From assembly GCA_003213515.1 (NCBI GenBank), contig QCMV01000007.1:9071-73070 (forward strand): a stretch of 64,000 nucleotides of DNA, read 5' to 3'. The translations under genes were made by a program, and so were the position numbers. The stretch is from Pelagibacteraceae bacterium AG-422-N09 (GTDB lineage: Bacteria > Pseudomonadota > Alphaproteobacteria > Pelagibacterales > AG-422-B15). Below the pieces are notes generated by a model. That model was not told the DNA's origin, ran no database searches, and saw only the letters and a program-made list of their open reading frames with translations. This document shows positions 4,246 to 64,000 of the stretch, one piece after another; position 1 is the first letter of the stretch, and every line of letters begins with the position of its first letter.

Positions 4246-5577
4246 ATGAACTTTGAAGAAACTGCTCAAAATATAATAGATTTAACTCTCAAAGCAGGCG
4301 CATCAGATTGTGATGTTGTTCTTGCTAAATCCTATGGTAAGTCAATAAGTTGTAGATTTCAAAAGATAGAAGACTTAGATGAGTCTAATGAAAAAACAAT
4401 AGGCATTAGAGCATTAGTTGATCAACGCCAAGCATTTGTTTCATCGTCAGATATTGAGTCTGACAATATTGATAAACTTGTTTCAAAATGTGTTGAAATG
4501 GCAAAATTGGCTCCAATTGATGACACTGCTGTACTTGGAGACAGCTCGATGTTTGAACACGATGCAATTGATTTAGATTTATTTGAGAAAGACGAAGTAG
4601 ATACTGAAAAACTTATTGATGCTGTAAAAGAATGTGAAGATGCAGCTTTGTCGGTAAAAGGTATTACAAATTCAGAGGGAGCTGGGGCTTCTACTTCCAA
4701 GGGAGAGTTTTATCTTGCTACAAGTAATGGCTTTCAAGGTGGATATCAATCATCAAGCAGTTCGGTATCTTGTTCGGTTCTCGCTGGACAGGGTCAGGAC
4801 ATGGAAAGAGATTACGAATATGCTGTGAAAAGACACTCAACTGATTTGCCAAGTGCAAAGGGAATTGGATTATCTGCTGCAAAAAAAACCCTAAAAAGGC
4901 TTAATGCCAAAAAAATCAGTTCAACAAAATTGCCTGTTGTTTTTGATAAACGAATAAGTAATGACTTATTGGGCTATCTAGCAAGTTCAATATCGGGCAC
5001 TTCAATAGCTAGAGGTACAAGTTTTCTAAAAGATAGTTTAGGAAAACAAATATTTAATAAAGACGTAACAATTATAGATGATCCAGCGATTAATAGAGGA
5101 CTTGGATCAAAACCATTTGATGGTGAGGGTATTAAAGTTAAGAAAAGAGAGTTAGTTACAAACGGCAAACTCAATACTTGGATCTTAAATACATCAACTG
5201 CAAAAAAATTAGGATTAAAAACTACTGGAAACGCATCAAGATCAGTTAGTTCTCCACCAGGTGTATCTACCTCTAATTTATACATGACAAACGGATTAAA
5301 AAGTTACGATGATATTTTATCCTCCATAAGTTATGGTTTTTATGCGACTGAATTAATTGGTATGGGAGTTAATTTAGTCACTGGCGATTACAGCATGGGG
5401 GCGAGCGGTATGCTTATTGAAAAAGGCGAAATAACGCATGCAGTAAGCGAAGTAACGATTGCTTCAAATCTAAAAGAAATATTTATGAATTTATCAGCAG
5501 CTAATGATTTAGAATTCAAATACCGTACCAATGCCCCAACAGTGCTCATCGAGAGCATGACTTTAGCTGGAAAATAA
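4246..5577 (+). CDS. pmbA: PmbA/TldD-family metalloprotease
   Basis: 443 aa. The C-terminal GDYSMGASGMLIEKGEI region is typical of PmbA_TldD. Confidence 0.8.
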   Translation: MNFEETAQNIIDLTLKAGASDCDVVLAKSYGKSISCRFQKIEDLDESNEKTIGIRALVDQRQAFVSSSDIESDNIDKLVSKCVEMAKLAPIDDTAVLGDSSMFEHDAIDLDLFEKDEVDTEKLIDAVKECEDAALSVKGITNSEGAGASTSKGEFYLATSNGFQGGYQSSSSSVSCSVLAGQGQDMERDYEYAVKRHSTDLPSAKGIGLSAAKKTLKRLNAKKISSTKLPVVFDKRISNDLLGYLASSISGTSIARGTSFLKDSLGKQIFNKDVTIIDDPAINRGLGSKPFDGEGIKVKKRELVTNGKLNTWILNTSTAKKLGLKTTGNASRSVSSPPGVSTSNLYMTNGLKSYDDILSSISYGFYATELIGMGVNLVTGDYSMGASGMLIEKGEITHAVSEVTIASNLKEIFMNLSAANDLEFKYRTNAPTVLIESMTLAGK

Positions 5578-5642
5578 GATTTTTAGCCATTTATCAATAT
5601 TTAGATTTAAATTTTTGATAATAGTATTATGAATACCTCTTC

Positions 5643-7373
5643 ATGACAGGATCGCAAATACTAATCAGGCTGTTTAAGGATAGTATTAAACCCTATACAG
5701 TTAGACTTTTTAGTTCTCTATTTTTTATGGTCATCATCGCGCTTGCAACTGGAGCGACTGCTTGGCTTTTGGATCCTGCAATTGATAAAATTTTTCTGGA
5801 TAAAGATGAGTCAATGCTCTTATTAATTCCGATTGCAATAATATTAACACTATTTATTAAGAGTGTAGCAACTTACATACAAATAATATTATTGAATGGA
5901 GTTGCTCAGAATATTATTGCTGATACACAAATAAAACTTTTTAAGAAAATTATTAATGCAGATCTTGCCTGGTTGCATAAAATTCATTCAGCCAAAATAA
6001 TATCAAATTTCTTATACGATGTTACATTGTTACAAGATTCTGTAAGTAGTAGTTTAGCAAATGGAGTAAAAGATATACTCACATTGATTTGTCTGGTTGG
6101 TGTAATGTATTATCAAGATTGGCAGCTAGCAACAATCTCAATAATTGCTTTTCCGTTGGTCGGGGTACTCACTAGACGTTTAGGAAAAAGAATAAAAAAA
6201 GCCTCAACAGAAACACAAGAGGAAACTGGTGTCCTTGCTTCTATATTGTCTGAAAATCTAGATGGAACAAGAATTGTAAAAGCCTATCAACAGGAAACGC
6301 AGGAAATAGAAAAGCTTAGTAAATCCGTATTTCGAAGAATGCAAAAAATTTTGAAAGGTATTAATGCAAGAGGTGCTGCATCCCCATTTGCAGAATTTCT
6401 AGCAGGTTTCGGTATCGCTGGAGCACTCTACTATGCAGGTTTAAGAGGACTGCAAGGTGAATTGGCTTTAAACGAATTTGTATCATTTTTGGGAGCGATG
6501 ATGCTCGCTTTTCAACCTCTAAGACGCTTAGCTCAAATAAATGCAACTTTACAAGAGGGATTTGCAGCAGCAATTAGAGTGTTCGGATTACTTGACCAAA
6601 AAAGCTATATTAATGAGAAGCCCAGAGCATCTGATCTATCTCTCAGTAAATCAGATATATCTTTTGAAAATGTAACTTTATCCTATGAAGGGCAAAAAAA
6701 CTCAGCTTTGAAAGAAATTAGCTTAAAGGTCCCGCACGGTAAAACAACCGCTTTAGTTGGCCCAAGCGGATCAGGCAAATCATCAATTCTAAATCTTATA
6801 CCAAGGTTTTATGACCCTGATACAGGAAGTGTTAAAATTGATAACCAAGATATAAAAGAATTATCAATTGCATCGGTAAGATCTTCAATCGCATTAGTTA
6901 GTCAAGAGCCAATTTTATTCGATATGTCTATTCACGATAATATTCTATATGGTAAACCAGACTCTCCCGATAATGAAGTCATAAAAGCTGCAAAAGCAGC
7001 TGCGGCAGACGAATTTATTAATGAGCTTCCAGATAAATATAAAACTGTAGTAGGTGAAAAAGGTTATAGTTTATCAGGTGGGCAAAAACAGAGGATTTCA
7101 ATTGCAAGAGCCTTTCTTAAAGACGCACCAATACTTTTACTTGATGAGGCTACTTCAAGTCTTGATACAGAGTCTGAACATCTTGTACAAAAAGCGATAA
7201 GTGTTCTCATGAAGGATAGAACTACTCTCGTAATCGCTCATAGACTTAGTACGATTATAAATTCAGATCAAATAATTGTTTTAGACTCAGGTAAGGTTGT
7301 AGAAACTGGTACTCATGAAGAATTATTAAATAAAGATGGCGTTTATAAAAAATTATATGAGCGTGAATTTTAA
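5643..7373 (+). CDS. msbA: ABC exporter, fused permease/ATPase, MsbA-like lipid A flippase
   Basis: Six-TM domain plus Walker A GPSGSGKSS, signature LSGGQKQR and Walker B LLLDEATS. It heads the lipid A/Kdo gene block. Confidence 0.75.
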   Translation: MTGSQILIRLFKDSIKPYTVRLFSSLFFMVIIALATGATAWLLDPAIDKIFLDKDESMLLLIPIAIILTLFIKSVATYIQIILLNGVAQNIIADTQIKLFKKIINADLAWLHKIHSAKIISNFLYDVTLLQDSVSSSLANGVKDILTLICLVGVMYYQDWQLATISIIAFPLVGVLTRRLGKRIKKASTETQEETGVLASILSENLDGTRIVKAYQQETQEIEKLSKSVFRRMQKILKGINARGAASPFAEFLAGFGIAGALYYAGLRGLQGELALNEFVSFLGAMMLAFQPLRRLAQINATLQEGFAAAIRVFGLLDQKSYINEKPRASDLSLSKSDISFENVTLSYEGQKNSALKEISLKVPHGKTTALVGPSGSGKSSILNLIPRFYDPDTGSVKIDNQDIKELSIASVRSSIALVSQEPILFDMSIHDNILYGKPDSPDNEVIKAAKAAAADEFINELPDKYKTVVGEKGYSLSGGQKQRISIARAFLKDAPILLLDEATSSLDTESEHLVQKAISVLMKDRTTLVIAHRLSTIINSDQIIVLDSGKVVETGTHEELLNKDGVYKKLYEREF

Positions 7374-7379
7374 AAGCTG

Positions 7380-8057
7380 ATGGTAAAATACATTGCTGGA
7401 TTTAAATTAACCCAATTATTAATATCCTTGCTTGGATCACTGTACGTATTATTTGTTTATAAGACATCTACGATTGATTTAAAGAATAGAAAAAATATTG
7501 ATAGGTTATTTAAAAAAAAAGAATCTTTCATTTATGCATTTTGGCATGATCAACTATTAATTTGCCCTCTTACATGGCAAAGTGAATTTGAAATAAAAGT
7601 ATTAATCTCTAAACACAGAGACGGCGATATAATCGCTAGATTAATATCAAAACTTGGATTTAAGGCTATTAGAGGATCTACCCATAAATCTGGCAAAACT
7701 AAGAATAAAGGTGGGCTGACATCAGCGCGCCAAATGATAAAATCTCTTAAAAACGGTATTTCAATTGGAATCTCGCCCGACGGTCCTAAAGGACCACGCC
7801 ACAAGGTCAGCGACGGCATCCTGAGCATCTCCCGTCTGAGTAATTCATCAATACTTCCTGTAGGTATAGGTTTTAAAAAAAAATGGGTACTGAATACTTG
7901 GGATAAATTTATTATACCAAAACCATTTAATCAAATCACGATAATCTGGGGTGAAGCAATTCCAGCCATAAAAGATGAAAAAAGTATTAATCAGACTAAG
8001 AATAAACTAGAAAGTAAAATGGAAAATTTAACTAAAAGAGCTAATAAAAATAATTAA
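7380..8057 (+). CDS. DUF374-type lysophospholipid acyltransferase-family protein
   Basis: FWHDQLL and ISPDGPKGPRH motifs. It holds the conserved position between msbA and waaA. Confidence 0.7.
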   Translation: MVKYIAGFKLTQLLISLLGSLYVLFVYKTSTIDLKNRKNIDRLFKKKESFIYAFWHDQLLICPLTWQSEFEIKVLISKHRDGDIIARLISKLGFKAIRGSTHKSGKTKNKGGLTSARQMIKSLKNGISIGISPDGPKGPRHKVSDGILSISRLSNSSILPVGIGFKKKWVLNTWDKFIIPKPFNQITIIWGEAIPAIKDEKSINQTKNKLESKMENLTKRANKNN

Positions 8058-8059
8058 TA

Positions 8060-9307
8060 ATGCTACCTTATTATAGTTATAGGTTAATTACGACACTCAT
8101 AAGACCATTTATTGATTTTTATATTCTTATTAGAATTTTAAAGGGCAAAGAAGATAGATTAAGGGTAACAGAAAGATATGGAACAAGTGATATTAAGAGA
8201 AAAGACGGCAAAGTCATTTGGTTTCATGCCGCTAGTATTGGAGAAAGTTTATCAATTTTACCTTTACTAAAAAAATTAAACTCTGATAAATCCATTGATC
8301 AAATAATTCTTACTACCGGGACACTTACTTCTGCAAATATACTCAAAGATAAGTTATCAAAAAAAATTATTCATCAATTTATTCCATTTGATGTTCCATC
8401 TTATATACATAAGTTTCTAAATCACTGGAACCCCTCTTTGGCTGTATTTGTTGAGTCTGAAATTTGGCCTAACTTTCTAACTGAGCTTAAAAAAAGAAAT
8501 GTATGTTCTCTAATTGTTAATGGAAGAATGACAATTAAAAGTTTTAAGAGATGGTCAATGCTCAGTGGATCATCAAAAAATCTATTTTCTAAGATTACTG
8601 CATGCTGTACTCAAAACAGTGATAGTGCTTTTTTTTATGAGAAGTTAGGTATTAAAAATACTATTAATACAGGAAATCTTAAATTTGCTTATAAACCTGA
8701 CGAAATTATTTCAGATGAACTAAAAAAACTGAGATCCCTTACAAAGAAACGTAAAATATTTCTTGCAGCCAGTACACATCCTGGAGAGGAAGAAATAATT
8801 AAAAACATTACACTTAATTTAAAAAAAACCGTAAAAGACCTTCTAACAATTATTGTACCCAGACACGTAACTAGAAAATCATTTTTTTCATCATCTAAAG
8901 GACTTGGTTTATCTATCAGGTCAAAGAAAGAAAAGATCAATGATCGAACATATTTATATCTTGCTGATACAATAGGAGAATTGAACATATTTTATAGTTT
9001 AGCAAATATAGTTTTTATTGGTGGCAGTTTAGTGCCACATGGTGGACAAAATCCCATAGAAGCTGCTTATTTAGGTAAAAAAATATATCATGGCAAAAAT
9101 ATTCAGAATTTCATTGATGTTTACGACGTTCTTAATCAATTAAAATTTACTCAACAAGTAGAAAATGAACGCCAGCTAGAGCATTACGTTAAAGAAGCAT
9201 TAGCTAACCCAAAGTCTATAAATAAGGATATTAATATAAATAGACTAAAAAAAGAGGGTGATGATACAGTAAGTAAAGTACTGGAAGTTATTTACCAATA
9301 TTTATAG
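8060..9307 (+). CDS. waaA: 3-deoxy-D-manno-octulosonic acid (Kdo) transferase
   Basis: The WFHAASIGE motif and the GGSLVPHGGQNPIEAA C-terminal region are typical of KdtA/WaaA. Confidence 0.85.
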   Translation: MLPYYSYRLITTLIRPFIDFYILIRILKGKEDRLRVTERYGTSDIKRKDGKVIWFHAASIGESLSILPLLKKLNSDKSIDQIILTTGTLTSANILKDKLSKKIIHQFIPFDVPSYIHKFLNHWNPSLAVFVESEIWPNFLTELKKRNVCSLIVNGRMTIKSFKRWSMLSGSSKNLFSKITACCTQNSDSAFFYEKLGIKNTINTGNLKFAYKPDEIISDELKKLRSLTKKRKIFLAASTHPGEEEIIKNITLNLKKTVKDLLTIIVPRHVTRKSFFSSSKGLGLSIRSKKEKINDRTYLYLADTIGELNIFYSLANIVFIGGSLVPHGGQNPIEAAYLGKKIYHGKNIQNFIDVYDVLNQLKFTQQVENERQLEHYVKEALANPKSINKDININRLKKEGDDTVSKVLEVIYQYL

Positions 9308-56493: not shown

Positions 56494-56760
56494 ATGGAGG
56501 GTATGTTTCAGAAAAAAAAATCAAATAAAAGTGCTACTCAAAATTTAAAAAATCTAATCATAGAGAAATTTAGATTAAATGAAGATACTACTGTAAGCAT
56601 TGCTGAACTAAGCTGTCATGAACCAAATTGCCCACCAAAAGAAACAATTATTACGATTCATAAAGCTAAAGGAATTACTTCTAACTTACGCATTCATAAA
56701 CCTCTAAATCAGATAAAGAGAGAAGACGTTGAGACATTAAAACGTGAAGAAAATTTTTAA
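56494..56760 (+). CDS. Hypothetical small protein with CHEPNCPP motif
   Basis: 88-aa ORF starting 1 nt after the WD40 stop. No family recognised. Confidence 0.45.
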   Translation: MEGMFQKKKSNKSATQNLKNLIIEKFRLNEDTTVSIAELSCHEPNCPPKETIITIHKAKGITSNLRIHKPLNQIKREDVETLKREENF

Positions 56761-56761
56761 T

Positions 56762-56798
56762 CTTTTCGGTGCCAGTACAACCGCACCGAAAGGATTTT
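56762..56798 (+). terminator. Candidate intrinsic terminator after the COG0523 operon
   Basis: Stem CTTTTCGGTGC / GCACCGAAAGG (56762-56772 / 56783-56793) with a 10-nt loop, followed by ATTTT. Confidence 0.4.
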
Positions 56799-56976
56799 AG
56801 CCACTAATGGAGAAAAACATCAAGCCAAGAAAACCTGTCGCGATCACAAAGCTTGATAAAAGTTTAGGGGTTCTAGAAAGTTTAAGCTTTGTGGTTGAAG
56901 GAATAATCACAAGAGTCGACTCACCGTTGTAGGATTGTCTTCTTATGTACTGAGGTTTCATCTTTGACTTTTTCAT
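56797..56976 (-). CDS. Candidate 59-aa tail-anchored small membrane protein
   Basis: ATG 56976 ... TAA 56797-56799, translating to MKKSKMKPQYIRRQSYNGESTLVIIPSTTKLKLSRTPKLLSSFVIATGFLGLMFFSISG. Basic N-terminus plus one C-terminal hydrophobic helix. Below the track's cut-off. Confidence 0.3.
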   Translation of the reverse strand: MKKSKMKPQYIRRQSYNGESTLVIIPSTTKLKLSRTPKLLSSFVIATGFLGLMFFSISG

Positions 56977-57081
56977 GTTTGATAAAAATATACCTAAAAA
57001 GCAAGGCTTAATTTTGATAAAAATATGTTCAAAACAAGATAGAAGTGTTTATTTTCAAAAATTTGCTGATATAAGAGACCG

Positions 57082-58005
57082 ATGCAAAATGTCGTCTCAG
57101 TAAAAAATTTATCTAAAACTTACAGTAATCAATTTCAGGCACTTAATAATATTAATTTAGATATCAAACAGAATGAAATATTTGCACTTCTTGGACCTAA
57201 TGGTGCAGGTAAAACAACTTTAATTAGTATTATTTGCGGAATTGTAACACCAAGTATTGGGACAGTTGAGGTTGGTAACTACGATATTATAAAAGATTAT
57301 AGAAAAACTAGGTCACAAATTGGACTCGTCCCTCAGGAGCTAACCTTAGAACAATTTGAAATTGTTTATAACAATGTATCCTACACGAGAGGCTTATACG
57401 GCAAACCTCCTAATCCTCAGCATATTGAAAAAATACTAAAAGATTTAAGTTTGTGGGATAAAAAAGACTCCAAAATTAACGAGCTTTCTGGTGGAATGAA
57501 AAGAAGAGTCTTGATTGCAAAAGCTCTTTCTCATGAACCTTCGGTCTTATTTCTTGATGAGCCAACAGCCGGGGTTGATGTCGAATTAAGAAAAGACATG
57601 TGGGAAGTCATTAAGAATTTAAGAAATAAAGGTGTTACAATAATTTTAACAACTCATTATATAGAAGAAGCAGAGGCAATTGCTGACCGGGTAGCAGTAA
57701 TTAATAAAGGTGAGATGATAATAGTTGATGAGACTTCAAATTTAATAAAAAGTTTAGGCCAGAAAACTCTAACAATTGATTTACATGAAACAGTTAAGAC
57801 ATTACCTGAATCACTTAAAAATTATAAACTTACTATAGTTAATGAAGGTTTATCAATTGATTACCAATACGATACACAAAGCAAACAAACTGGAATAACC
57901 TCTCTCTTGCAAGATATGAAAGAAGCTGGATTAAAACTAAAAGATTTAAATACAGAACAAAGTTCACTTGAAAAAATCTTTGTAGAATTGGTAAAGGAAA
58001 AATAA
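57082..58005 (+). CDS. ABC-2-type transporter ATP-binding protein
   Basis: GPNGAGKTT, LSGGMKRR, LFLDEPTAGVD motifs. Confidence 0.85.
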   Translation: MQNVVSVKNLSKTYSNQFQALNNINLDIKQNEIFALLGPNGAGKTTLISIICGIVTPSIGTVEVGNYDIIKDYRKTRSQIGLVPQELTLEQFEIVYNNVSYTRGLYGKPPNPQHIEKILKDLSLWDKKDSKINELSGGMKRRVLIAKALSHEPSVLFLDEPTAGVDVELRKDMWEVIKNLRNKGVTIILTTHYIEEAEAIADRVAVINKGEMIIVDETSNLIKSLGQKTLTIDLHETVKTLPESLKNYKLTIVNEGLSIDYQYDTQSKQTGITSLLQDMKEAGLKLKDLNTEQSSLEKIFVELVKEK

Positions 58006-58766
58006 TGAATTTCTACGCTATTAGAGCAATTTATTTTCATGAAATGGATCGAATGAGAAGAACTCTTTTTCAAAGCGTGCTTTCACCTGTACTTTCAACT
58101 TCTTTATATTTCATTGTATTCGGTTCAGTTATTGGAGGCATGATTCCTCAAATTGAAGGAGTTAGTTATGGGTCATTTATTGTACCTGGTTTATTGATGC
58201 TGACTTTGTTGACTCAAAGCATTTCAAACTCATCATTTGGAATATTCTTTCCTAAATTTACTGGATCTATTTATGAAGTTCTTGCGGCACCTGTTTCCTC
58301 TTTAGAAATTATCATTGGTTTTGTCGGCGCCAGTGCAACCAAATCACTTATTGTTGGCGTCATTATACTCATTACTGCAACTTTCTTTGTTGAACTAGAA
58401 ATTCAATATCCCTTATTAATGTTTTTTCTTCTGGTATTAACATGTCTTACATTTAGTCTTTTTGGATTTCTTATTGGACTGCTCAGTGAAAATTTTGAAC
58501 AGTTGCAAGTTGTACCACTTATCATCGTCACCCCTTTAGTTTTTTTAGGTGGTAGTCTTTACACCGTAGAAATGCTTCCAGAATTTTGGCAAAACGTAAC
58601 TTACTTTAATCCAGTTTTATATCTTGTGAATGGCATGAGATGGTCCTTTTACGGGGCATCTGATATTAATATTTGGGTCAGTGTAATCTCTCTAGTTGCT
58701 TTCCTAAGCATCTGTGTTGCTGGCGTGGCAATTGCTATCACAAAAGGCTATGGTACAAAAGAGTAA
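58005..58766 (+). CDS. ABC-2-type transporter permease
   Basis: Six-TM ABC-2 membrane protein, start overlapping the ATPase stop. Confidence 0.8.
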   Translation: MNFYAIRAIYFHEMDRMRRTLFQSVLSPVLSTSLYFIVFGSVIGGMIPQIEGVSYGSFIVPGLLMLTLLTQSISNSSFGIFFPKFTGSIYEVLAAPVSSLEIIIGFVGASATKSLIVGVIILITATFFVELEIQYPLLMFFLLVLTCLTFSLFGFLIGLLSENFEQLQVVPLIIVTPLVFLGGSLYTVEMLPEFWQNVTYFNPVLYLVNGMRWSFYGASDINIWVSVISLVAFLSICVAGVAIAITKGYGTKE

Positions 58767-58850: not shown

Positions 58851-60959
58851 CTAAAATCCACTTTCTCTGATTAATGTTGATGAAACCAAATTAAATAAAT
58901 TTTGAAAAATATTATAGTTTTCAGTCTGAATTTTTACTTTACCTGCTGTTTGCCATTGAACAGTCTCAACTTCTGTACTTGTAGAAAAATTCAGCTGGTA
59001 TAAAGCTTCTTCGGGTCGATAAATAACTTTTTCATCTCCCTTTACTTCACGTGATGCAATTGATCCACCAAAAGTAGATACTAGTGATAAGTAAGGAAGT
59101 TCTTCTGTCGATGTATTATTTTGCGAGACTAAGATAACTTCTGTTTCATCAAATTCATTATTTTTTGGAACAAAATAACCACTTGTATTACCTTCAAGTT
59201 TGTCTAAATCATTCTCACTTATAAATGCGACTACTTTTGTGTCATTGAATTGAACAATAGAAAATAATTTTTCTTTTATATTCACCCACTGTCCATTATT
59301 TAAATACTTTAGATCTTTTATTACCCCGCTCATTGGTGCATAGATTGAAAGATTTTCATTTTCCTCTTTAAGACTTTTAAGAATTTCAAATTCTACTTTC
59401 AATTGGTTTTCTAATACCATTAGGTTACTCATATCAGCTTCTGATCCAATTCGACGATCTAGTTTTTGCTGTATCATCTTTACGCGCTCAATGGCTTTAT
59501 CAACTTTGTTTGATAGAGACGGACTCATCATTGTAATTAATAAGTCACCCTTTTCGACTTGTTGATCTGAGACAACATAAATTTCTTTTATCTCAGAATC
59601 TTCTGTTGGGTAGATATCGACTACTTCACCTCGATCAATCACTGCAGGAAGGCTGAGTGAACTTCGCCATGGCATTAACATTGCTGCCAAAAATACTGAG
59701 AAAATAAAAATTGATCTCAAAGAAGTCCAATTAAAACGCATGTACCTTCTAAGTCCCCACCACTGTCTAATTTCTCTCCAAATTGGAAGTAAAATGAACC
59801 AAACAATCTCAATAATGAACAGGATTATACCAAGAATTTTGAATGTTAAATAATAAACTAATAAGGCAATCCCAATAAATATAAAGAAGCGATATATCCA
59901 TGTCATCCACGCGTAAATGATGAAAGTCCACCGTCTTCGACTCATGAGTTGTTCCGGTGGTTGGAATTTAAATCCAAAGATCCATTCTCTAATCTGCCAT
60001 CGACCTAAAGCAAAGGAACGCGGTTGAAGATTTTCCGCTTTAAGAAAATCTGAGAGCACATAGTATCCGTCAAATCTCATAAACGGGCTAATATTAATAA
60101 GAAGTGATGATATCCAGCTTGAAGTCGCAATAAAAAATGAAGCACTTTTGATAACGCCATCAGGGCTTACAGCCCAAACAAATGTAGCAAGAAGGGCAAG
60201 ATGCAATTCAGTCAGCATACCAGCAAAATTAATCAGTAAGCGTTTTCTATGATCAGTTAATTTATAAGCATCAGTTGTATCTGTGTATAAGAAGGGGAAA
60301 AAAACCAGCATTGCAAGCCCAATTGAAGAAACTTTGCATTTATAATAAGTGGCAACATATGCATGCCCAAGTTCGTGCAAGGCTTTTACAAAAACAATCG
60401 TTATACCAAACAAAATCAGTCCATTAACATTAAAGAAATAAGAAAATGTTGTTAAAAAGGTTTCATAGTTTTGGATTGTTAAAAAAATACCAATGATCCC
60501 CAAAATATAAATTATTAGTCTGCTGGTTTGCGATCCAATAAACAACGCAAAAGGTAAACTGTTTTCTAGACCATTTCCTGGTTTGAATAATGGGACTTTA
60601 AAGAACAAATAATTATGAATAATTTTTAACAGCCAATGCTTGTTAAGTTTCTCTTTTTGAACAACTAAAGATTTAACTTCATCACCTGTTTTTTTTATAG
60701 TTAAATTATTGAGATTTAGAAAACTGATAAATTCTTCAATTTCTTCTTGTGTAATAGACAAATTACTTTTTTTAATTTTTTCAATAAATTCTGTTGTCTC
60801 AATTCCACCTGACCAATTTTTAAGGAGATCAAATGCTTTTTTGTTTATTGAAAAGTATTTATTTCTTAATGAGTCATAAAGAAGCCACGATGCTGATCCG
60901 TCTTCTTTCTTTGGTCCCTCACTGAGTTTCAAATCTTGTCGGATAGACGGTACAATCAT
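58851..60959 (-). CDS. Polytopic M50 (site-2-protease-like) zinc metalloprotease fused to a C-terminal HlyD-type periplasmic domain
   Basis: HELGH at aa 195-199, NISPFMRFDGYY at aa 289-300, and multiple TM helices. The C-terminal 250 aa carry VEKGDLLITMMSP, a coiled coil, IYAPMSGVIKDL (split lipoyl/barrel-sandwich hairpin) and a beta-barrel. Confidence 0.7.
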   Translation of the reverse strand: MIVPSIRQDLKLSEGPKKEDGSASWLLYDSLRNKYFSINKKAFDLLKNWSGGIETTEFIEKIKKSNLSITQEEIEEFISFLNLNNLTIKKTGDEVKSLVVQKEKLNKHWLLKIIHNYLFFKVPLFKPGNGLENSLPFALFIGSQTSRLIIYILGIIGIFLTIQNYETFLTTFSYFFNVNGLILFGITIVFVKALHELGHAYVATYYKCKVSSIGLAMLVFFPFLYTDTTDAYKLTDHRKRLLINFAGMLTELHLALLATFVWAVSPDGVIKSASFFIATSSWISSLLINISPFMRFDGYYVLSDFLKAENLQPRSFALGRWQIREWIFGFKFQPPEQLMSRRRWTFIIYAWMTWIYRFFIFIGIALLVYYLTFKILGIILFIIEIVWFILLPIWREIRQWWGLRRYMRFNWTSLRSIFIFSVFLAAMLMPWRSSLSLPAVIDRGEVVDIYPTEDSEIKEIYVVSDQQVEKGDLLITMMSPSLSNKVDKAIERVKMIQQKLDRRIGSEADMSNLMVLENQLKVEFEILKSLKEENENLSIYAPMSGVIKDLKYLNNGQWVNIKEKLFSIVQFNDTKVVAFISENDLDKLEGNTSGYFVPKNNEFDETEVILVSQNNTSTEELPYLSLVSTFGGSIASREVKGDEKVIYRPEEALYQLNFSTSTEVETVQWQTAGKVKIQTENYNIFQNLFNLVSSTLIRESGF

Positions 60960-62297
60960 TTATATTCCTAAAAACTGTCTGCTGATATTGATTGGAACTC
61001 TGAAGATATAATAAAAAAGAGATGTCCGATCTCCGTAAATTTTTGCTGATCCTCGTAATCCAATACGCGGCGGCTCAATATTATCCTCGAGGCTAGCGTG
61101 TATTTTATAAGCTAAAATATTTTCAGCTGTTAATTCAGGTTTGTAAGATGTTCTTAATATTTTTCCTTCAATTGAGCTTAGTGGACTGCTGTCTAAAAAA
61201 ACCTTAACTCTTGCTGATTTTTCAATAAAAAGTGAGTCTTTTGTTGGTAGGTAGATTAAGAACTCAATATCATTTGAATTGGCAATCGTTAATATCTTTT
61301 CACCTATATTTACAGGACGACCTTGCCAATCAATAAAATCTTCAACAACAGCAACTCCCGAAACCTCCGCTTTTATGACAGAATATTTTAATTGTTCCTC
61401 GGCATAAGCAACTTGCTTTTTCTTCAACGCAACTTCAGTTGATAGTTCAACGAGCTTTGCTTTTGCCTCATCATTTGTAAATGAGGATTGTTTAGCCCTG
61501 AGTAATTCTGCTTCGGCGACTTCTAATTCTTGTAAGTTTATTTCGTATTGAGATTTAAAATTGAGATCGTCTAATTTTACAAGTTCCATACCAATATCAA
61601 CAGCATCATTTGTGTTAACTAATACTTTTTTCACTACACCATTCACAGGTGATGTAACAACTGACGGATTTTTAGCAATAACTTCAACCGGCGCAACAGC
61701 GGATATATTAATTGGCATAAACATTGCAAATGCGATTGCTGATAATATTAGCCACTTTAGCCAACCTGAGAAAATTCTACCAAAAAAGGATAAAATCGAT
61801 ATTCTTGATAAAAATGAGTCCAATGCATGGCTGAATGTTTCAGCAATGTGCTGCAGCAGTTCTTTTTCTGTATCTGAAACTTTAGCAGATCGTACAATTA
61901 CTAGAGAACCTAAATCACCCTTTGTTCTTGAAATTAATGGAACAACCATTAACTCGTTTGGAAAATTTTCAGGTAAGTCTAAATTTGATCCATCTTCTCT
62001 TAAATCACTAATTGAAACTTCTGAAAAGACTCCCGTTTCAACCTTCTTTTTATTTATTAATCTTTCAACAAACGTAACTGTCGGCGCTGTTCTATCAACG
62101 ACTGAAATATCCGAGATCGTTTGGACTTTCTGTCGGCCCGTAGCAGATTTAGTAAGAAAAAATAAAAAATTATAATCAACAACACTTCTTAACTCATTTG
62201 CACAAACGAAGCCGAGTTCGGATAAGCTTTCTGCAGTCCGAAATTTTTTCTCAAGAGTAATTAATCTTGCTATTTTTATTGAAGTATTATCATTCAA
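60960..62297 (-). CDS. HlyD-family membrane fusion protein with about 170-aa cytoplasmic N-terminal domain
   Basis: Single TM (WLKWLILSAIAFAMFMPI), VTSPVNGVVKKVLV...LVKLD, a coiled coil, and VIKAEVSGVAVVEDF. Its stop abuts the start of the M50 gene. Confidence 0.7.
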   Translation of the reverse strand: MNDNTSIKIARLITLEKKFRTAESLSELGFVCANELRSVVDYNFLFFLTKSATGRQKVQTISDISVVDRTAPTVTFVERLINKKKVETGVFSEVSISDLREDGSNLDLPENFPNELMVVPLISRTKGDLGSLVIVRSAKVSDTEKELLQHIAETFSHALDSFLSRISILSFFGRIFSGWLKWLILSAIAFAMFMPINISAVAPVEVIAKNPSVVTSPVNGVVKKVLVNTNDAVDIGMELVKLDDLNFKSQYEINLQELEVAEAELLRAKQSSFTNDEAKAKLVELSTEVALKKKQVAYAEEQLKYSVIKAEVSGVAVVEDFIDWQGRPVNIGEKILTIANSNDIEFLIYLPTKDSLFIEKSARVKVFLDSSPLSSIEGKILRTSYKPELTAENILAYKIHASLEDNIEPPRIGLRGSAKIYGDRTSLFYYIFRVPINISRQFLGI

Positions 62298-63013
62298 AAC
62301 GTTGCTGTCCCACTCATGCCTGGCAGTAATGTATCATAATTTTCATCAAATTTTGCAGTAATGTCGATGGTTTGGCTAACAGGATCAATATCAACGCCGA
62401 TAGTATGAATTTTGGCACTATATGTTTGACCGTTTTCATCAATGTTGATTTTCATTGGATAACCCTCATCAATCCAAGCCAACCATTTGCTTGAAACAAT
62501 CAGTTTTGCCTCAAGAATTCCTGAACCAATGATTTCAACCAATGGCTGCTGCCTTTCAATGCTCTCAAACTCATTTACAAACACTTTGGATACTTTGCCA
62601 TCGTAAGGGGCTTTAATTATACATCGATCTGTATTGAGTTTAGCAATCTGTAATTCAGCTTCTGCACGCTTTACATCGATTTCTGATAACTGAACCTCAT
62701 ATTCTCCAATGGATCTCATCAAGGCAAGGTCTTGATTGCTCTTTAGAGTTACTCTAGCACTCTCTAATTGTGCTTCAACAACTTTTCTTTGTTCTTCAAA
62801 AAATGAACAGTCAAACTTAATTAAAATATCAGACTCTTTAAATTCAGTCCCTTCATCAATTGGAATTGAATCAACTTTTGCGGCAAGTTCACTTGATAGT
62901 GTTGCTTCTTCGGTTGCAGTTACTAAAACACGTGTGGAATATTCTTCTGCTGACAAATTATAAGGCAATAATATGCAGCACGCTGTTACCGCAAATGTTA
63001 CAATTTTGTTCAT
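62294..63013 (-). CDS. Small secreted periplasmic adaptor (HlyD/RND-adaptor-like barrel-sandwich protein)
   Basis: Signal peptide, LSSELAAKVDSIPIDEGTEFKESDILIKFD, a short coiled coil, and IIKAPYDGKVSKVFV. 4-nt overlap with the next gene. Confidence 0.65.
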   Translation of the reverse strand: MNKIVTFAVTACCILLPYNLSAEEYSTRVLVTATEEATLSSELAAKVDSIPIDEGTEFKESDILIKFDCSFFEEQRKVVEAQLESARVTLKSNQDLALMRSIGEYEVQLSEIDVKRAEAELQIAKLNTDRCIIKAPYDGKVSKVFVNEFESIERQQPLVEIIGSGILEAKLIVSSKWLAWIDEGYPMKINIDENGQTYSAKIHTIGVDIDPVSQTIDITAKFDENYDTLLPGMSGTATF

Positions 63014-63024
63014 AAAGGTATTTA

Positions 63025-64000
63025 TTAACTTACTAGAGATACAATCTTTTCGCCATAGCTATCTGCTGCTTTAGCATGATGCTTTAATTGTTCATCAAGA
63101 GGAATGAAGGAAATTTCATCATTTGCTTCTGAGTTTTCTTCACCAGACTCAGTTCCTGTTATTTCATTGAGATCAATCTCAACTTCAATAACTCTTTCTT
63201 TTCCATCTTCATCTTCAGCAATTATCTTTAGTTCAAGAACTTGAAGGCTTTCCGTTAAGAATGCTGGAGCTGCTGAGCCTGTTCTACCTTTTGAAGGATC
63301 AGCTGCAATTTTTCCAGTTTCAGGATTAATTGTAATCCAATCAGGCAGTGCGCCACCACCTTTGAGCTCTGCTTTATACATTTTTACATTTGATTGATTG
63401 TCATCAATCACATCGACTGTAAATTGACCTGCATCCATTTGAAGACTGCTTAATTTCATTGTGCCTTCAAAATCTGTTTGGGCGTTCAAATTATTATTTG
63501 CTGTATTGCTAGATGAATTATTATTCTCTCTGATCAGATTTACATTTGCATCATTATCGACAACAACCCTTGTCTGATCACCAAGGCCTCTAGTAAACTC
63601 TTGGTCACCCTTAATCTTTGCTTTATCTAAGACAATATTGATATCACGCGTGTTACCATCTTTATCTAAAGCTACTAACTGAACTTCAACTTCTTCAACA
63701 CCGTCAGGCATTTCTGCAGTTGTCTCACCAGTTTCAGGATTTACCTTGATCCATTCAGGTAATGCATCACCGTTTGAAAGTTGACCAGAATACAATTCAA
63801 CATTTTTCTGGTTATCGTCATTTAATTTAACACCTACTCTTAGATCTGTATCTTCGCTGCTAGTTGTCTCATTTGCAACTGCATCCATCAATCGAAGACC
63901 ACCATTAAACTTGAGTGGTTTAGTTAGAGATGCAGTATCTGCAATTGAAATAGTATCAAGAGTGAAGCCTTCATCATCGACAACAATATTCACTTCATTA
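63025..64000 (-). CDS. 3' end of a large secreted repeat protein (cadherin/dystroglycan-type or putative-Ig repeats), open at the window edge
   Basis: No stop upstream of the track's GTG at 63993, so the frame continues past 64000. Two repeats of about 110 aa contain ALPEWIKVNPETGETTAEMP and ALPDWITINPETGKIAADP. Acidic, with no Cys. Confidence 0.6.
   Translation of the reverse strand, partial: NEVNIVVDDEGFTLDTISIADTASLTKPLKFNGGLRLMDAVANETTSSEDTDLRVGVKLNDDNQKNVELYSGQLSNGDALPEWIKVNPETGETTAEMPDGVEEVEVQLVALDKDGNTRDINIVLDKAKIKGDQEFTRGLGDQTRVVVDNDANVNLIRENNNSSSNTANNNLNAQTDFEGTMKLSSLQMDAGQFTVDVIDDNQSNVKMYKAELKGGGALPDWITINPETGKIAADPSKGRTGSAAPAFLTESLQVLELKIIAEDEDGKERVIEVEIDLNEITGTESGEENSEANDEISFIPLDEQLKHHAKAADSYGEKIVSLVS

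Follow-up and report, generated by a model that had tools for sequence, protein, structure and literature searches.

A putative intramembrane metalloprotease encoded with three membrane-fusion-protein domains and no linked pump, conserved beside large repeat-protein genes in SAR11 and other bacteria

Introduction

What could a group of periplasmic adaptor proteins do when the only polytopic membrane protein encoded with them is a putative protease? This question is raised by a locus at one end of a 64,000-nucleotide stretch of contig QCMV01000007.1 from Pelagibacteraceae bacterium AG-422-N09 (hereafter the window, whose first letter is position 1). Four co-directional genes on the minus strand encode, in order of transcription, the C-terminal part of a large repeat protein, a 239-aa and a 445-aa adaptor of the HlyD-type membrane-fusion protein (MFP) family, and a 702-aa protein in which a soluble N-terminal domain, an M50 metalloprotease core and a further MFP domain are fused. 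A preliminary description of these abutting or overlapping genes, made from the letters alone, had pointed out that no pump was visible and had proposed a processing-coupled device for export, release or tethering of the repeat protein or of an unseen peptide. Our scan for open reading frames (ORFs) and Pfam searches reproduced its coordinates and domains exactly, and its assignment of three MFP-like domains and an M50 core was right by Pfam and NCBIfam.

In this study, we compared the locus with its relatives. With slightly more belief than doubt, we hold that the trio forms the inner-membrane and periplasmic portion of a conserved envelope system, which has five components and is dedicated to the repeat protein (hereafter the cargo) and in which processing of a leader is coupled to export or surface display; the fifth component, an outer-membrane factor (OMF) of the TolC family, was found in relatives.

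Conservation of the Gene Set across Phyla

An exhaustive search with the 702-aa fusion protein returned 2556 clusters (50% identity level) at E ≤ 1e-30, and among the best 150 of these 2556 clusters most matched over the full length, at ~700-720 aa. The nearest homologues were SAR11/Pelagibacteraceae proteins of 700-702 aa, and the closest genome locus, from a Pelagibacteraceae single-cell genome (L009), encodes a protein 97% identical to the fusion of the window. When genomes were scanned with the fusion alignment, 80 loci were returned from Alpha-, Beta-, Gamma- and Zetaproteobacteria, Nitrospirota, Scalindua and Desulfobacterota, including several species of Pseudomonas as well as Halomonas, Marinomonas, Colwellia, Nitrospira defluvii, Hyphomicrobium, Methylobacterium, Azospirillum and Desulfovibrio.

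The components were mapped at the loci by tblastn, and 42 loci had at least 8 kb on both sides. Among these, the long adaptor (445-aa type) was found in 41, the short adaptor (239-aa type) in 37, a giant ORF or one with the LEPR peptide described below in 40, and the OMF in 26; where the OMF was unseen, it is probably located beyond the giant gene. In the wider set, 51 of 86 loci showed the OMF. Furthermore, at the 65 loci with at least 4.5 kb upstream, the long adaptor gene adjoined the fusion gene in all but one (64/65), and the short adaptor was present in 60. With C for cargo, O for OMF, S for short adaptor, L for long adaptor and M for the M50-adaptor fusion, the gene orders were C-O-S-L-M, O-S-L-M-C, o-C-S-L-M (the window type) and, in Pseudomonas, S-L-M-C-O, so that the order changed while the content was kept. 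Unbiased clustering of ORFs over the loci revealed no further widely shared family. The trio and the giant repeat genes are thus linked across phyla, and their adjacency, kept through rearrangements, bears out the earlier suggestion that the neighbouring giant protein is functionally tied to the module.

Besides these shared genes, one ORF-cluster family of ~180 aa was common to 9 loci. In two Pseudomonas loci, a GNAT acetyltransferase gene stands right after the fusion gene (L062, 12210-12710; L084, 12113-12604), and the genes preceding the Pseudomonas cargo vary: in L062 there is one for a phage tail-collar domain protein, in L084 one for a sulfotransferase. These extra genes hint at lineage-specific cargo modification.

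Predicted Architecture of the Fusion Protein

The fusion protein matched Peptidase_M50 (PF02163) with 38.3 bits (cutoff 27.2), and HlyD_D23 and HlyD_3 with 41.7 and 37.1 bits, respectively, both above the cutoffs. The AlphaFold2 model of the whole chain (mean pLDDT, the predicted local distance difference test score, 84.4) begins with three strands and three helices that form an N-terminal unit (residues 11-83). Its core, lying between residues 144 and 428, is made of seven long helices and includes a beta-hairpin (213-226), and in the adaptor domain that follows, residues 480-501 and 513-535 make up a short alpha-hairpin. Since the number of spans in the model is odd, the N-domain is predicted to be cytoplasmic and the C-domain periplasmic. 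The HELGH motif sits inside model helix 178-205, and profile comparison matched the HExxH helix to mjS2P (3b4r) and RseP (7w6x). In an alignment of 29 family members reaching down to 32% identity, H195, E196 and H199 as well as N289, P292, D297 and G298 were invariant, the latter four belonging to NxxPxxxxDG, the second M50 motif and source of the third zinc ligand. Loss of these residues among homologues, which the preliminary description had named as an argument against its proposal, was therefore not seen. Judged by its motifs, the core would be an intact intramembrane zinc protease, for which proteolysis is predicted.

Among NCBIfam models, the best match for residues 23-391 was NF041824 (daptide_HExxH), whose score of 111.5 bits lies under the cutoff of 300; no curated NCBIfam model matched the fusion protein at or above its own cutoff. 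By these scores it is placed as a homologue of the daptide metalloprotease and not as a member of the NF041824 equivalog. Note that public records label the family just as "site-2 protease family protein" or "HlyD family adaptor".

Profile matches of the C-terminal domain in the Protein Data Bank (PDB) were ZneB, HlyD (8dck, 7sgr), MacA, EmrA and LipC, and a whole-chain Foldseek search returned MacA, EmrA, MexA and AcrA at E-values of 1e-14 to 1e-9, and also ZneB. Because such MFP matches filled the whole-chain list, the N-domain was modelled alone. The isolated model (pLDDT 86.8) has strands at 11-15, 24-29 and 34-38 and helices at 40-47, 55-64 and 71-83. As its ten best PDB matches, Foldseek returned only recognition elements (RREs) of peptides that are synthesised by ribosomes and modified after translation (RiPPs), with probabilities of 0.94-1.00, and the next matches were unrelated proteins at 0.5 or less. 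The RREs included TbiB1 with leader (5v1u, 5v1v), CteB (5why, 5wgg), a lasso B1 protein with leader (6jx3) and PqqD (5sxy), and TM-scores on the target were 0.56-0.65 for stand-alone RRE chains. PqqD membership is not detectable by sequence, so that fold evidence was used instead; from the models, the N-domain is predicted to adopt the winged-helix fold of RREs. An earlier guess that this domain is PqqD-like was in this way supported by fold, although PqqD was not matched by sequence.

Some conserved positions lie outside these motifs. The terminal helix of the fusion protein is conserved and ends in the tail (L/V)IRESGF (58854-58871), in which E699 is invariant, and the 445-aa family likewise has a conserved RQxLG end tail after its terminal helix (60963-60983); these tails of the two membrane-anchored adaptors may be contact points within a complex. 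In addition, besides the zinc ligands, five charged residues are invariant or nearly so within the predicted transmembrane helices of the fusion protein (K192, E251, K374, E384 and E396; ~59770-60386), and such charges could be relevant to an ion-coupled or gating function in a system that has no visible motor.

The Two Separate Adaptors

MFP family models (HlyD_D23/HlyD_3) were matched above cutoff by all three proteins of the trio. Specifically, the 445-aa protein scored 50.7 bits with HlyD_3 and 33.9 with HlyD_D23, and the 239-aa protein scored 60.8 bits with HlyD_3 and 104.7 with the NCBIfam model TIGR01730 (RND_mfp; cutoff 94.9). By hydropathy, the 239-aa protein has a signal-peptide-like hydrophobic segment (residues 4-22), and the 445-aa protein has one membrane segment at ~175-204, which leaves a cytoplasmic N-domain of ~174 aa, in agreement with the topology proposed for both proteins before.

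In an alignment of 25 orthologues, the N-domain of the 445-aa family was well conserved, with the motifs LLxLExxxRxAxSxxEL, VNETR and LWxPL...GGL. No PDB sequence match was found for residues 1-170. A GAF-type domain had been suggested here; GAF models matched the window protein below cutoff (E=0.03 and 0.099) and the family in just 3 of the 25 orthologues, each time weakly and below threshold. In type 1 secretion systems, the cytoplasmic N-terminus of HlyD engages the substrate, and by analogy the 445-aa N-domain may contact the cargo or sense a signal.

An Outer-Membrane Factor beyond the Window

In two SAR11 relatives (L006 and L007), a divergent gene for a protein of 823-911 aa is followed by the cargo gene and then by genes for proteins of 239, 445-447 and 701 aa. 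The divergent gene encodes a TolC-family OMF with two OEP repeats (117 and 98 bits). Judging from these relatives, the OMF gene of the window's contig would be placed past position 64000, upstream of the repeat gene and divergent from it. The three proteins of the module were hence described correctly before, but relatives add an OMF as a fixed fifth component besides the cargo. The preliminary description had further held that an ABC (ATP-binding cassette) transporter and a TolC-like gene upstream would reduce the module to an ordinary accessory set of type 1 secretion; in the relatives the TolC-like gene is present and the ABC transporter is absent.

The SAR11 OMFs are unusually long: they start with a lipoprotein-like signal (LSAC), and after the TolC-like part comes a He_PIG Ig domain of the cargo type. 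The OMF of L007 has a C-terminal SPOR peptidoglycan-binding domain as well, which was seen in L007 alone among the OMFs examined.

The Cargo and Its N-Terminal LEPR Peptide

Within the window's portion of the cargo, two He_PIG-type Ig domains carry the repeat motif LP(D/E)WI.(V/I)NPETG (63727-63762 and 63313-63348). A contig encoding an identical 239-aa protein (L001) lengthens the repeat gene by 4.6 kb, and a search with the resulting 1543-aa piece led to full-length relatives of ~2350 aa, among which P0121 (2354 aa, 88% identical) contains DUF4347, Cadherin_4, Big_9 and He_PIG domains. The repeat gene is therefore large, as described before, but at ~2350 aa in the window lineage its product is not the multi-thousand-residue giant that had been pictured; cargos of 6339 and 9101 aa are found in Pelagibacter relatives. 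Note that a 623-aa "short" repeat protein in L004 proved to be an artefact of a scaffold gap (a run of N) within the same giant gene.

The LEPR motif and DUF4347 of the window's own cargo lie past the window edge, and its head is known from relatives. All cargo N-termini examined, across phyla, have the same layout, namely a basic stretch, a LEPR peptide with the consensus (A/S)LEPR-x-(M/L)-(F/L)-D-(G/A)-A-x-A-T, then a linker of low complexity (30-130 residues), and lastly DUF4347. The NCBIfam model NF012209 (LEPR-XLL; cutoff 17) matched the close relative L006 with 19.0 bits and one Pseudomonas cargo slightly below the cutoff, with 16.9, and DUF4347 scored 166-196 bits in the cargo heads, where its motifs VVFVD, IHxxSHG, LxYGC, GADVAASxDxTG and GGDWxLE are found. 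In a six-frame translation of 1.47 Mb, matches to a LEPR regular expression were confined to the heads of giant ORFs, with none on a short ORF, and this disfavours the unseen peptide that had been considered as an alternative substrate. Loci seemingly without cargo mostly have a giant ORF beside the module that runs off the fetched flank.

As a reciprocal test, a scan of metagenomes for a DUF4347 pattern gave 80 loci. In 29 of them the module could be seen, and LEPR was present in 28 of these 29. On the other hand, DUF4347 proteins without detectable LEPR had the module nearby in only 1 of 27 cases, and that one has an uncertain N-terminus, indicating that LEPR, and not DUF4347, tracks the module. 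DUF4347 was accordingly ruled out as the defining feature of the system: without LEPR it is unlinked to the module, and it also occurs in PA0256, a small putative Hcp-loaded effector of type VI secretion solved as PDB 9qpe, in which the domain is still uncharacterised.

The passenger domains of four complete cargos are unrelated, consisting of cadherin_4/Big_9, eukaryote-type cadherin with SibA-Ig, FG-GAP, and Big_12, respectively, and no HemolysinCabind match, the sign of RTX repeats, was found in these four. At the other end of the cargo, ~25-35 aa from the C-terminus, we found an element of the form (P/T/S/G/A)(L/F)-x-(E/Q/D..)-Q-(L/I/V), followed by an amphipathic tail. Its strict pattern occurred in 27 of 57 cargo-like ORFs and in 8 of 1049 control ORFs. 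The element is not covered by any family model and may act as a second signal for sorting or secretion.

Aligned cargo heads (e.g., L006 10130-10660) have an invariant Cys in the YGC motif of DUF4347 (C165) and a nearly invariant His in SHG, in place of which two Nitrospira cargos have Glu. The domain matched Peptidase_C80 weakly (E=0.0097), and from this single match the SHG...YGC arrangement would resemble the cysteine protease dyad of clan CD (caspase/CPD-like).

Absence of a Linked Pump

No gene for an ABC, resistance-nodulation-division (RND) or major facilitator superfamily (MFS) pump was conserved within ±10 kb in the 86 loci, and the unbiased clustering gave no such family. ABC ATPases were present in 14 of the 86 loci, where neither their strand nor their position was constant. 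The window has four ABC ATPases (MsbA, two small non-exporter types and an ABC-2 pair), and throughout its 64 kb no ABC exporter was found beyond MsbA, the sole protein with fused transmembrane and nucleotide-binding domains. The statement that no pump is visible thus holds for the entire window and extends to the relatives, where no pump gene accompanies the module.

Two genes of the window were considered as the module's pump and rejected. The fused gene at 5643-7373 is MsbA beside a Kdo transferase gene, and the convergent ABC-2 pair at 57082-58766 is not conserved beside the module, relatives having photolyase, prolyl peptidase or Wzy genes there.

Locus Layout and Expression

The features of the locus are collected in Table 1. 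All four module ORFs lie on the minus strand; the gene for the 702-aa protein abuts that for the 445-aa protein, the 445-aa and 239-aa genes overlap by 4 nt, and 11 nt separate the repeat-protein tail from the 239-aa gene. Contigs from marine metatranscriptomes (four runs, three studies) covered all four genes at similar low depth, and one contig bridges the junction of the 702-aa and 445-aa genes, which is compatible with a single transcript. Co-expression, which had been proposed as a check, was in agreement as far as the similar depth on the four genes goes, but contig depth is a poor measure of expression.

Table 1. Features of the module in the window and of the OMF genes in two SAR11 relatives (aa, amino acids; AF2, AlphaFold2).
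Feature	Coordinates	Strand	Basis
Fusion protein, 702 aa: predicted RRE-fold domain, seven-helix M50 core and periplasmic MFP domain	58851..60959	-	ORF scan, Pfam, AF2
Predicted N-terminal RRE-fold (PqqD-like) domain of fusion, residues ~1-90	60690..60959	-	Isolated-domain model and Foldseek
Putative M50 metalloprotease core of fusion, polytopic, residues ~128-428	59676..60578	-	Invariant motifs, profile matches
HELGH, residues 195-199	60363-60377	-	
NISPFMRFDG, residues 289-298	60066-60095	-	
C-terminal periplasmic MFP domain of fusion, residues 430-702	58854..59672	-	PDB profile and Foldseek
Membrane-fusion protein, 445 aa	60960..62297	-	ORF scan, Pfam, hydropathy, orthologue alignment
Cytoplasmic N-domain of 445-aa protein	61776-62297	-	
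Transmembrane segment of 445-aa protein	61686-61775	-	
Periplasmic MFP domain of 445-aa protein	60963-61685	-	
Periplasmic short adaptor, 239 aa, lipoyl and beta-barrel, RND-MFP type	62294..63013	-	TIGR01730
Predicted N-terminal signal peptide of 239-aa adaptor	62948-63013	-	Hydropathy
C-terminal 324 aa of cargo (repeat-protein tail)	63025..64000 (window edge)	-	ORF scan, Pfam
Conserved C-terminal cargo element, FIPLDEQLKHHAKAADSYGEKIVSLVS, and stop codon	63025..63108	-	Motif count
SAR11 OMF genes	L006 7040-9775; L007 7318-9789	Divergent from cargo	OEP repeats

Outside the module, metatranscriptome contig depth showed a spike at 56534-57067, roughly 100-fold over neighbouring genes (709-1063 in X1 and 292 in X5), and adapter sequence in X5 delimits a fragment of ~165 nt at 56804-56968. 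This fragment coincides with a minus-strand ORF of 59 aa (56797-56976; MKKSKMKPQYIRRQSYNGESTLVIIPSTTKLKLSRTPKLLSSFVIATGFLGLMFFSISG), whose product has a basic N-terminus and a C-terminal hydrophobic helix; with a threshold of 80 aa, the ORF listing did not include it. A hairpin terminator after this ORF (56762-56797) is common to a convergent ORF of 88 aa. The ORF and the RNA spike gave no Rfam or Pfam match, and RNA fold z-scores were not significant. The spike stands either for a small membrane protein with very high expression or for a small RNA. In addition, an ordinary lipopolysaccharide/housekeeping block occupies 4246-9307, with genes for PmbA (4246-5577), MsbA (see above) and Kdo transferase (8060-9307) and a 225-aa ORF without assignment (7380-8057).

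Discussion

On the composition, conservation and co-occurrence of the five genes, the folds of their products and the intact catalytic motifs, we base the following proposal. On the cytoplasmic side of the membrane, the RRE domain of the fusion protein would dock the cargo's LEPR peptide, and the adjoining M50 active site would cut the LEPR leader. Three adaptor domains and the OMF would build a periplasm-spanning duct of the kind known from tripartite efflux or type 1 secretion, so that the giant protein would be exported or displayed on the surface in a step coupled to leader processing. The direction of threading, as well as the choice of export over release or tethering, belongs to the conjectural part of this proposal, as do the RRE-LEPR contact, the cleavage and the duct.

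Several points weigh against it, the chief weakness being the missing energy source: the system encodes none, and no gene for an ATPase or a proton-driven pump is linked. To our knowledge, there is no precedent for a duct without a motor that moves a protein of 2000-9000 aa. The RRE fold matches have modest E-values (0.007-0.09), and Pfam PqqD (PF05402) matched none of 28 N-domains of the fusion family, even at E ≤ 10. No module was seen near two LEPR genes (L121 and L165) that have at least 6 kb of clear sequence on either side, indicating that the linkage of LEPR and module is not obligatory; the module may lie elsewhere in those genomes. It could also be that the true signal for secretion is the C-terminal cargo element, as it is in type 1 systems; the RRE domain might then bind that element, or nothing in the cargo. 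Lastly, metatranscriptome contigs can hold contaminating, carried-over DNA, which adds to the limited value of their depth as an expression measure.

A bolder form of the same proposal, which we offer tentatively and with doubt outweighing belief, is that the locus represents an unrecognised type of Gram-negative secretion or surface display. Its engine would be an RRE-guided intramembrane metalloprotease that recognises the LEPR leader of giant adhesin-like proteins, joined to a duct of three adaptors and a TolC-like protein, with no dedicated ATPase and a drive that might come from folding outside the cell or from the membrane potential, and it would be found in SAR11, Nitrospira, Pseudomonas and many other lineages.

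An account in which the missing motor is expected is that an unlinked type 1 ABC transporter exports the cargo, C-terminus first, by means of its C-terminal element, that the folded DUF4347 head stays behind and plugs the OMF in the manner of the LapA retention module, and that the RRE-M50 fusion holds the LEPR end and cuts it, thereby controlling if the adhesin remains on the cell, as a membrane-embedded functional analogue of LapG/LapD. We consider this unlikely, though it keeps real weight: many cargos end in L-x-(E/Q)-Q-L and an amphipathic tail, where type 1 substrates have their signal; a folded alpha/beta domain follows right after the N-terminal peptide, which is the position of a retention module; and the extra Ig and SPOR domains on the SAR11 OMF suit a static anchor. 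Its chief weakness is that a candidate ABC exporter is missing, MsbA being the only one in the 64-kb window and none being conserved near the loci, so that the streamlined SAR11 genomes would need a second, separate exporter. Moreover, the cargos are without RTX repeats, and three adaptor-type proteins with a dedicated OMF exceed what a release switch needs.

It is very improbable that the genes are an ordinary set for tripartite efflux or peptide export, with the pump or a small RiPP-like precursor elsewhere or overlooked and the giant gene a mere frequent neighbour. The standard MFP domains in all three proteins, the 239-aa protein passing the RND-adaptor cutoff, and the usual action of RRE-M50 proteins on short precursor peptides would fit such a set. 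However, the giant gene remains adjacent despite several rearrangements of order and across phyla, the leader-like LEPR peptide is found on giant ORFs only and follows the presence of the module rather than DUF4347, and unbiased clustering gave no RND, MFS or ABC pump family.

Least credible of all is a structural trans-envelope tether without secretion, which would staple the inner membrane, peptidoglycan and outer membrane together with the giant protein as an envelope or periplasmic scaffold and the protease in quality control, since, although the SPOR domain of the L007 OMF, the absent motor and the three adaptors would suit it, the passengers are extracellular-adhesin domains (cadherin, Big, FG-GAP, He_PIG), proteins of 2000-9000 aa would not fit the periplasm, and SPOR was seen in that one alone among the OMFs examined.

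If the proposal of processing-coupled export holds, a protease as the membrane partner of a tripartite envelope assembly would extend the repertoire of MFP/TolC machines, and RiPP-type leader recognition of a giant protein would join two fields so far unconnected. It also offers a testable partner for LEPR-XLL and DUF4347, two "unknown" annotations, and a rule by which surface giants would be predictable from their N-termini. Carriers of the fusion family include bacteria that are dominant ecologically or have been studied well, among them SAR11, Nitrospira (comammox and nitrite-oxidising), the anammox bacterium Scalindua, and Pseudomonas. SAR11 is the most abundant heterotroph in the ocean, and the fact that its extremely streamlined genomes keep the module and a gene of 7-27 kb argues for a strong selective value at the cell surface.

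In the full-text literature open without subscription, we found no published description of such a system, in line with the preliminary statement that no experimentally characterised system of this composition was known to its author; mentions of "M50" in efflux reviews turned out to be residue numbers or digital object identifiers, not the protease. Each piece is already known (MFPs, OMFs, RRE-M50 leader peptidases, and the LEPR-XLL and DUF4347 labels), and it is the combination that is apparently undescribed.

Comparison with Known Systems

By sequence, the closest characterised relative of the fusion protein is the RRE-site-2-protease of daptide biosynthesis. The daptide leader peptidase (NF041824) and related RiPP M50 proteases likewise join an M50 core to an RRE-fold domain at the N-terminus, with homology over residues 23-391, and, as described in the daptide paper, such fusions co-occur with precursors bearing a conserved N-terminal leader motif, as the module does with cargos that have a short conserved N-terminal motif. 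In contrast, the fusion protein has an extra C-terminal periplasmic MFP domain and scores far under the equivalog cutoff, the module has two more adaptors and an OMF, Gram-negative hosts and no modifying enzymes, and its presumed substrate is 1300-9000 aa long, whereas a daptide peptide has ~40 aa.

Type 1 secretion systems (HlyBD-TolC, or LapBCE with LapA, LapG and LapD) also place MFP and OMF genes beside a giant repeat gene for an adhesin-like protein. The MFP fold found here matches HlyD, LipC, MacA and EmrA, many cargos have a conserved C-terminal element, and the folded domain near the cargo N-terminus may be compared with a retention module. The differences are that no HlyB/PrtD-type ABC exporter is linked and RTX repeats are absent from the cargo, that there are three adaptor-type domains instead of one, that the polytopic partner is a protease, and that the cargo is marked by an N-terminal LEPR peptide. 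More generally, MFPs of the HlyD family have an energised ABC, RND or MFS partner as a norm, whereas none is conserved near the module.

In peptidase-containing ABC transporters (PCATs), which export bacteriocins, leader removal is physically coupled to export in one membrane complex, often with an MFP accessory, as we propose for the module. The PCAT protease, however, is a cysteine protease of the C39 type that acts in the cytoplasm as part of a fusion with an ABC pump, while that of the module is a putative intramembrane zinc enzyme with no pump. Finally, the cargo heads match both LEPR-XLL (NF012209) and Pfam DUF4347, but these are sequence labels without an assigned function or partner, and DUF4347 also occurs without LEPR; the module described here supplies a candidate partner for the two.

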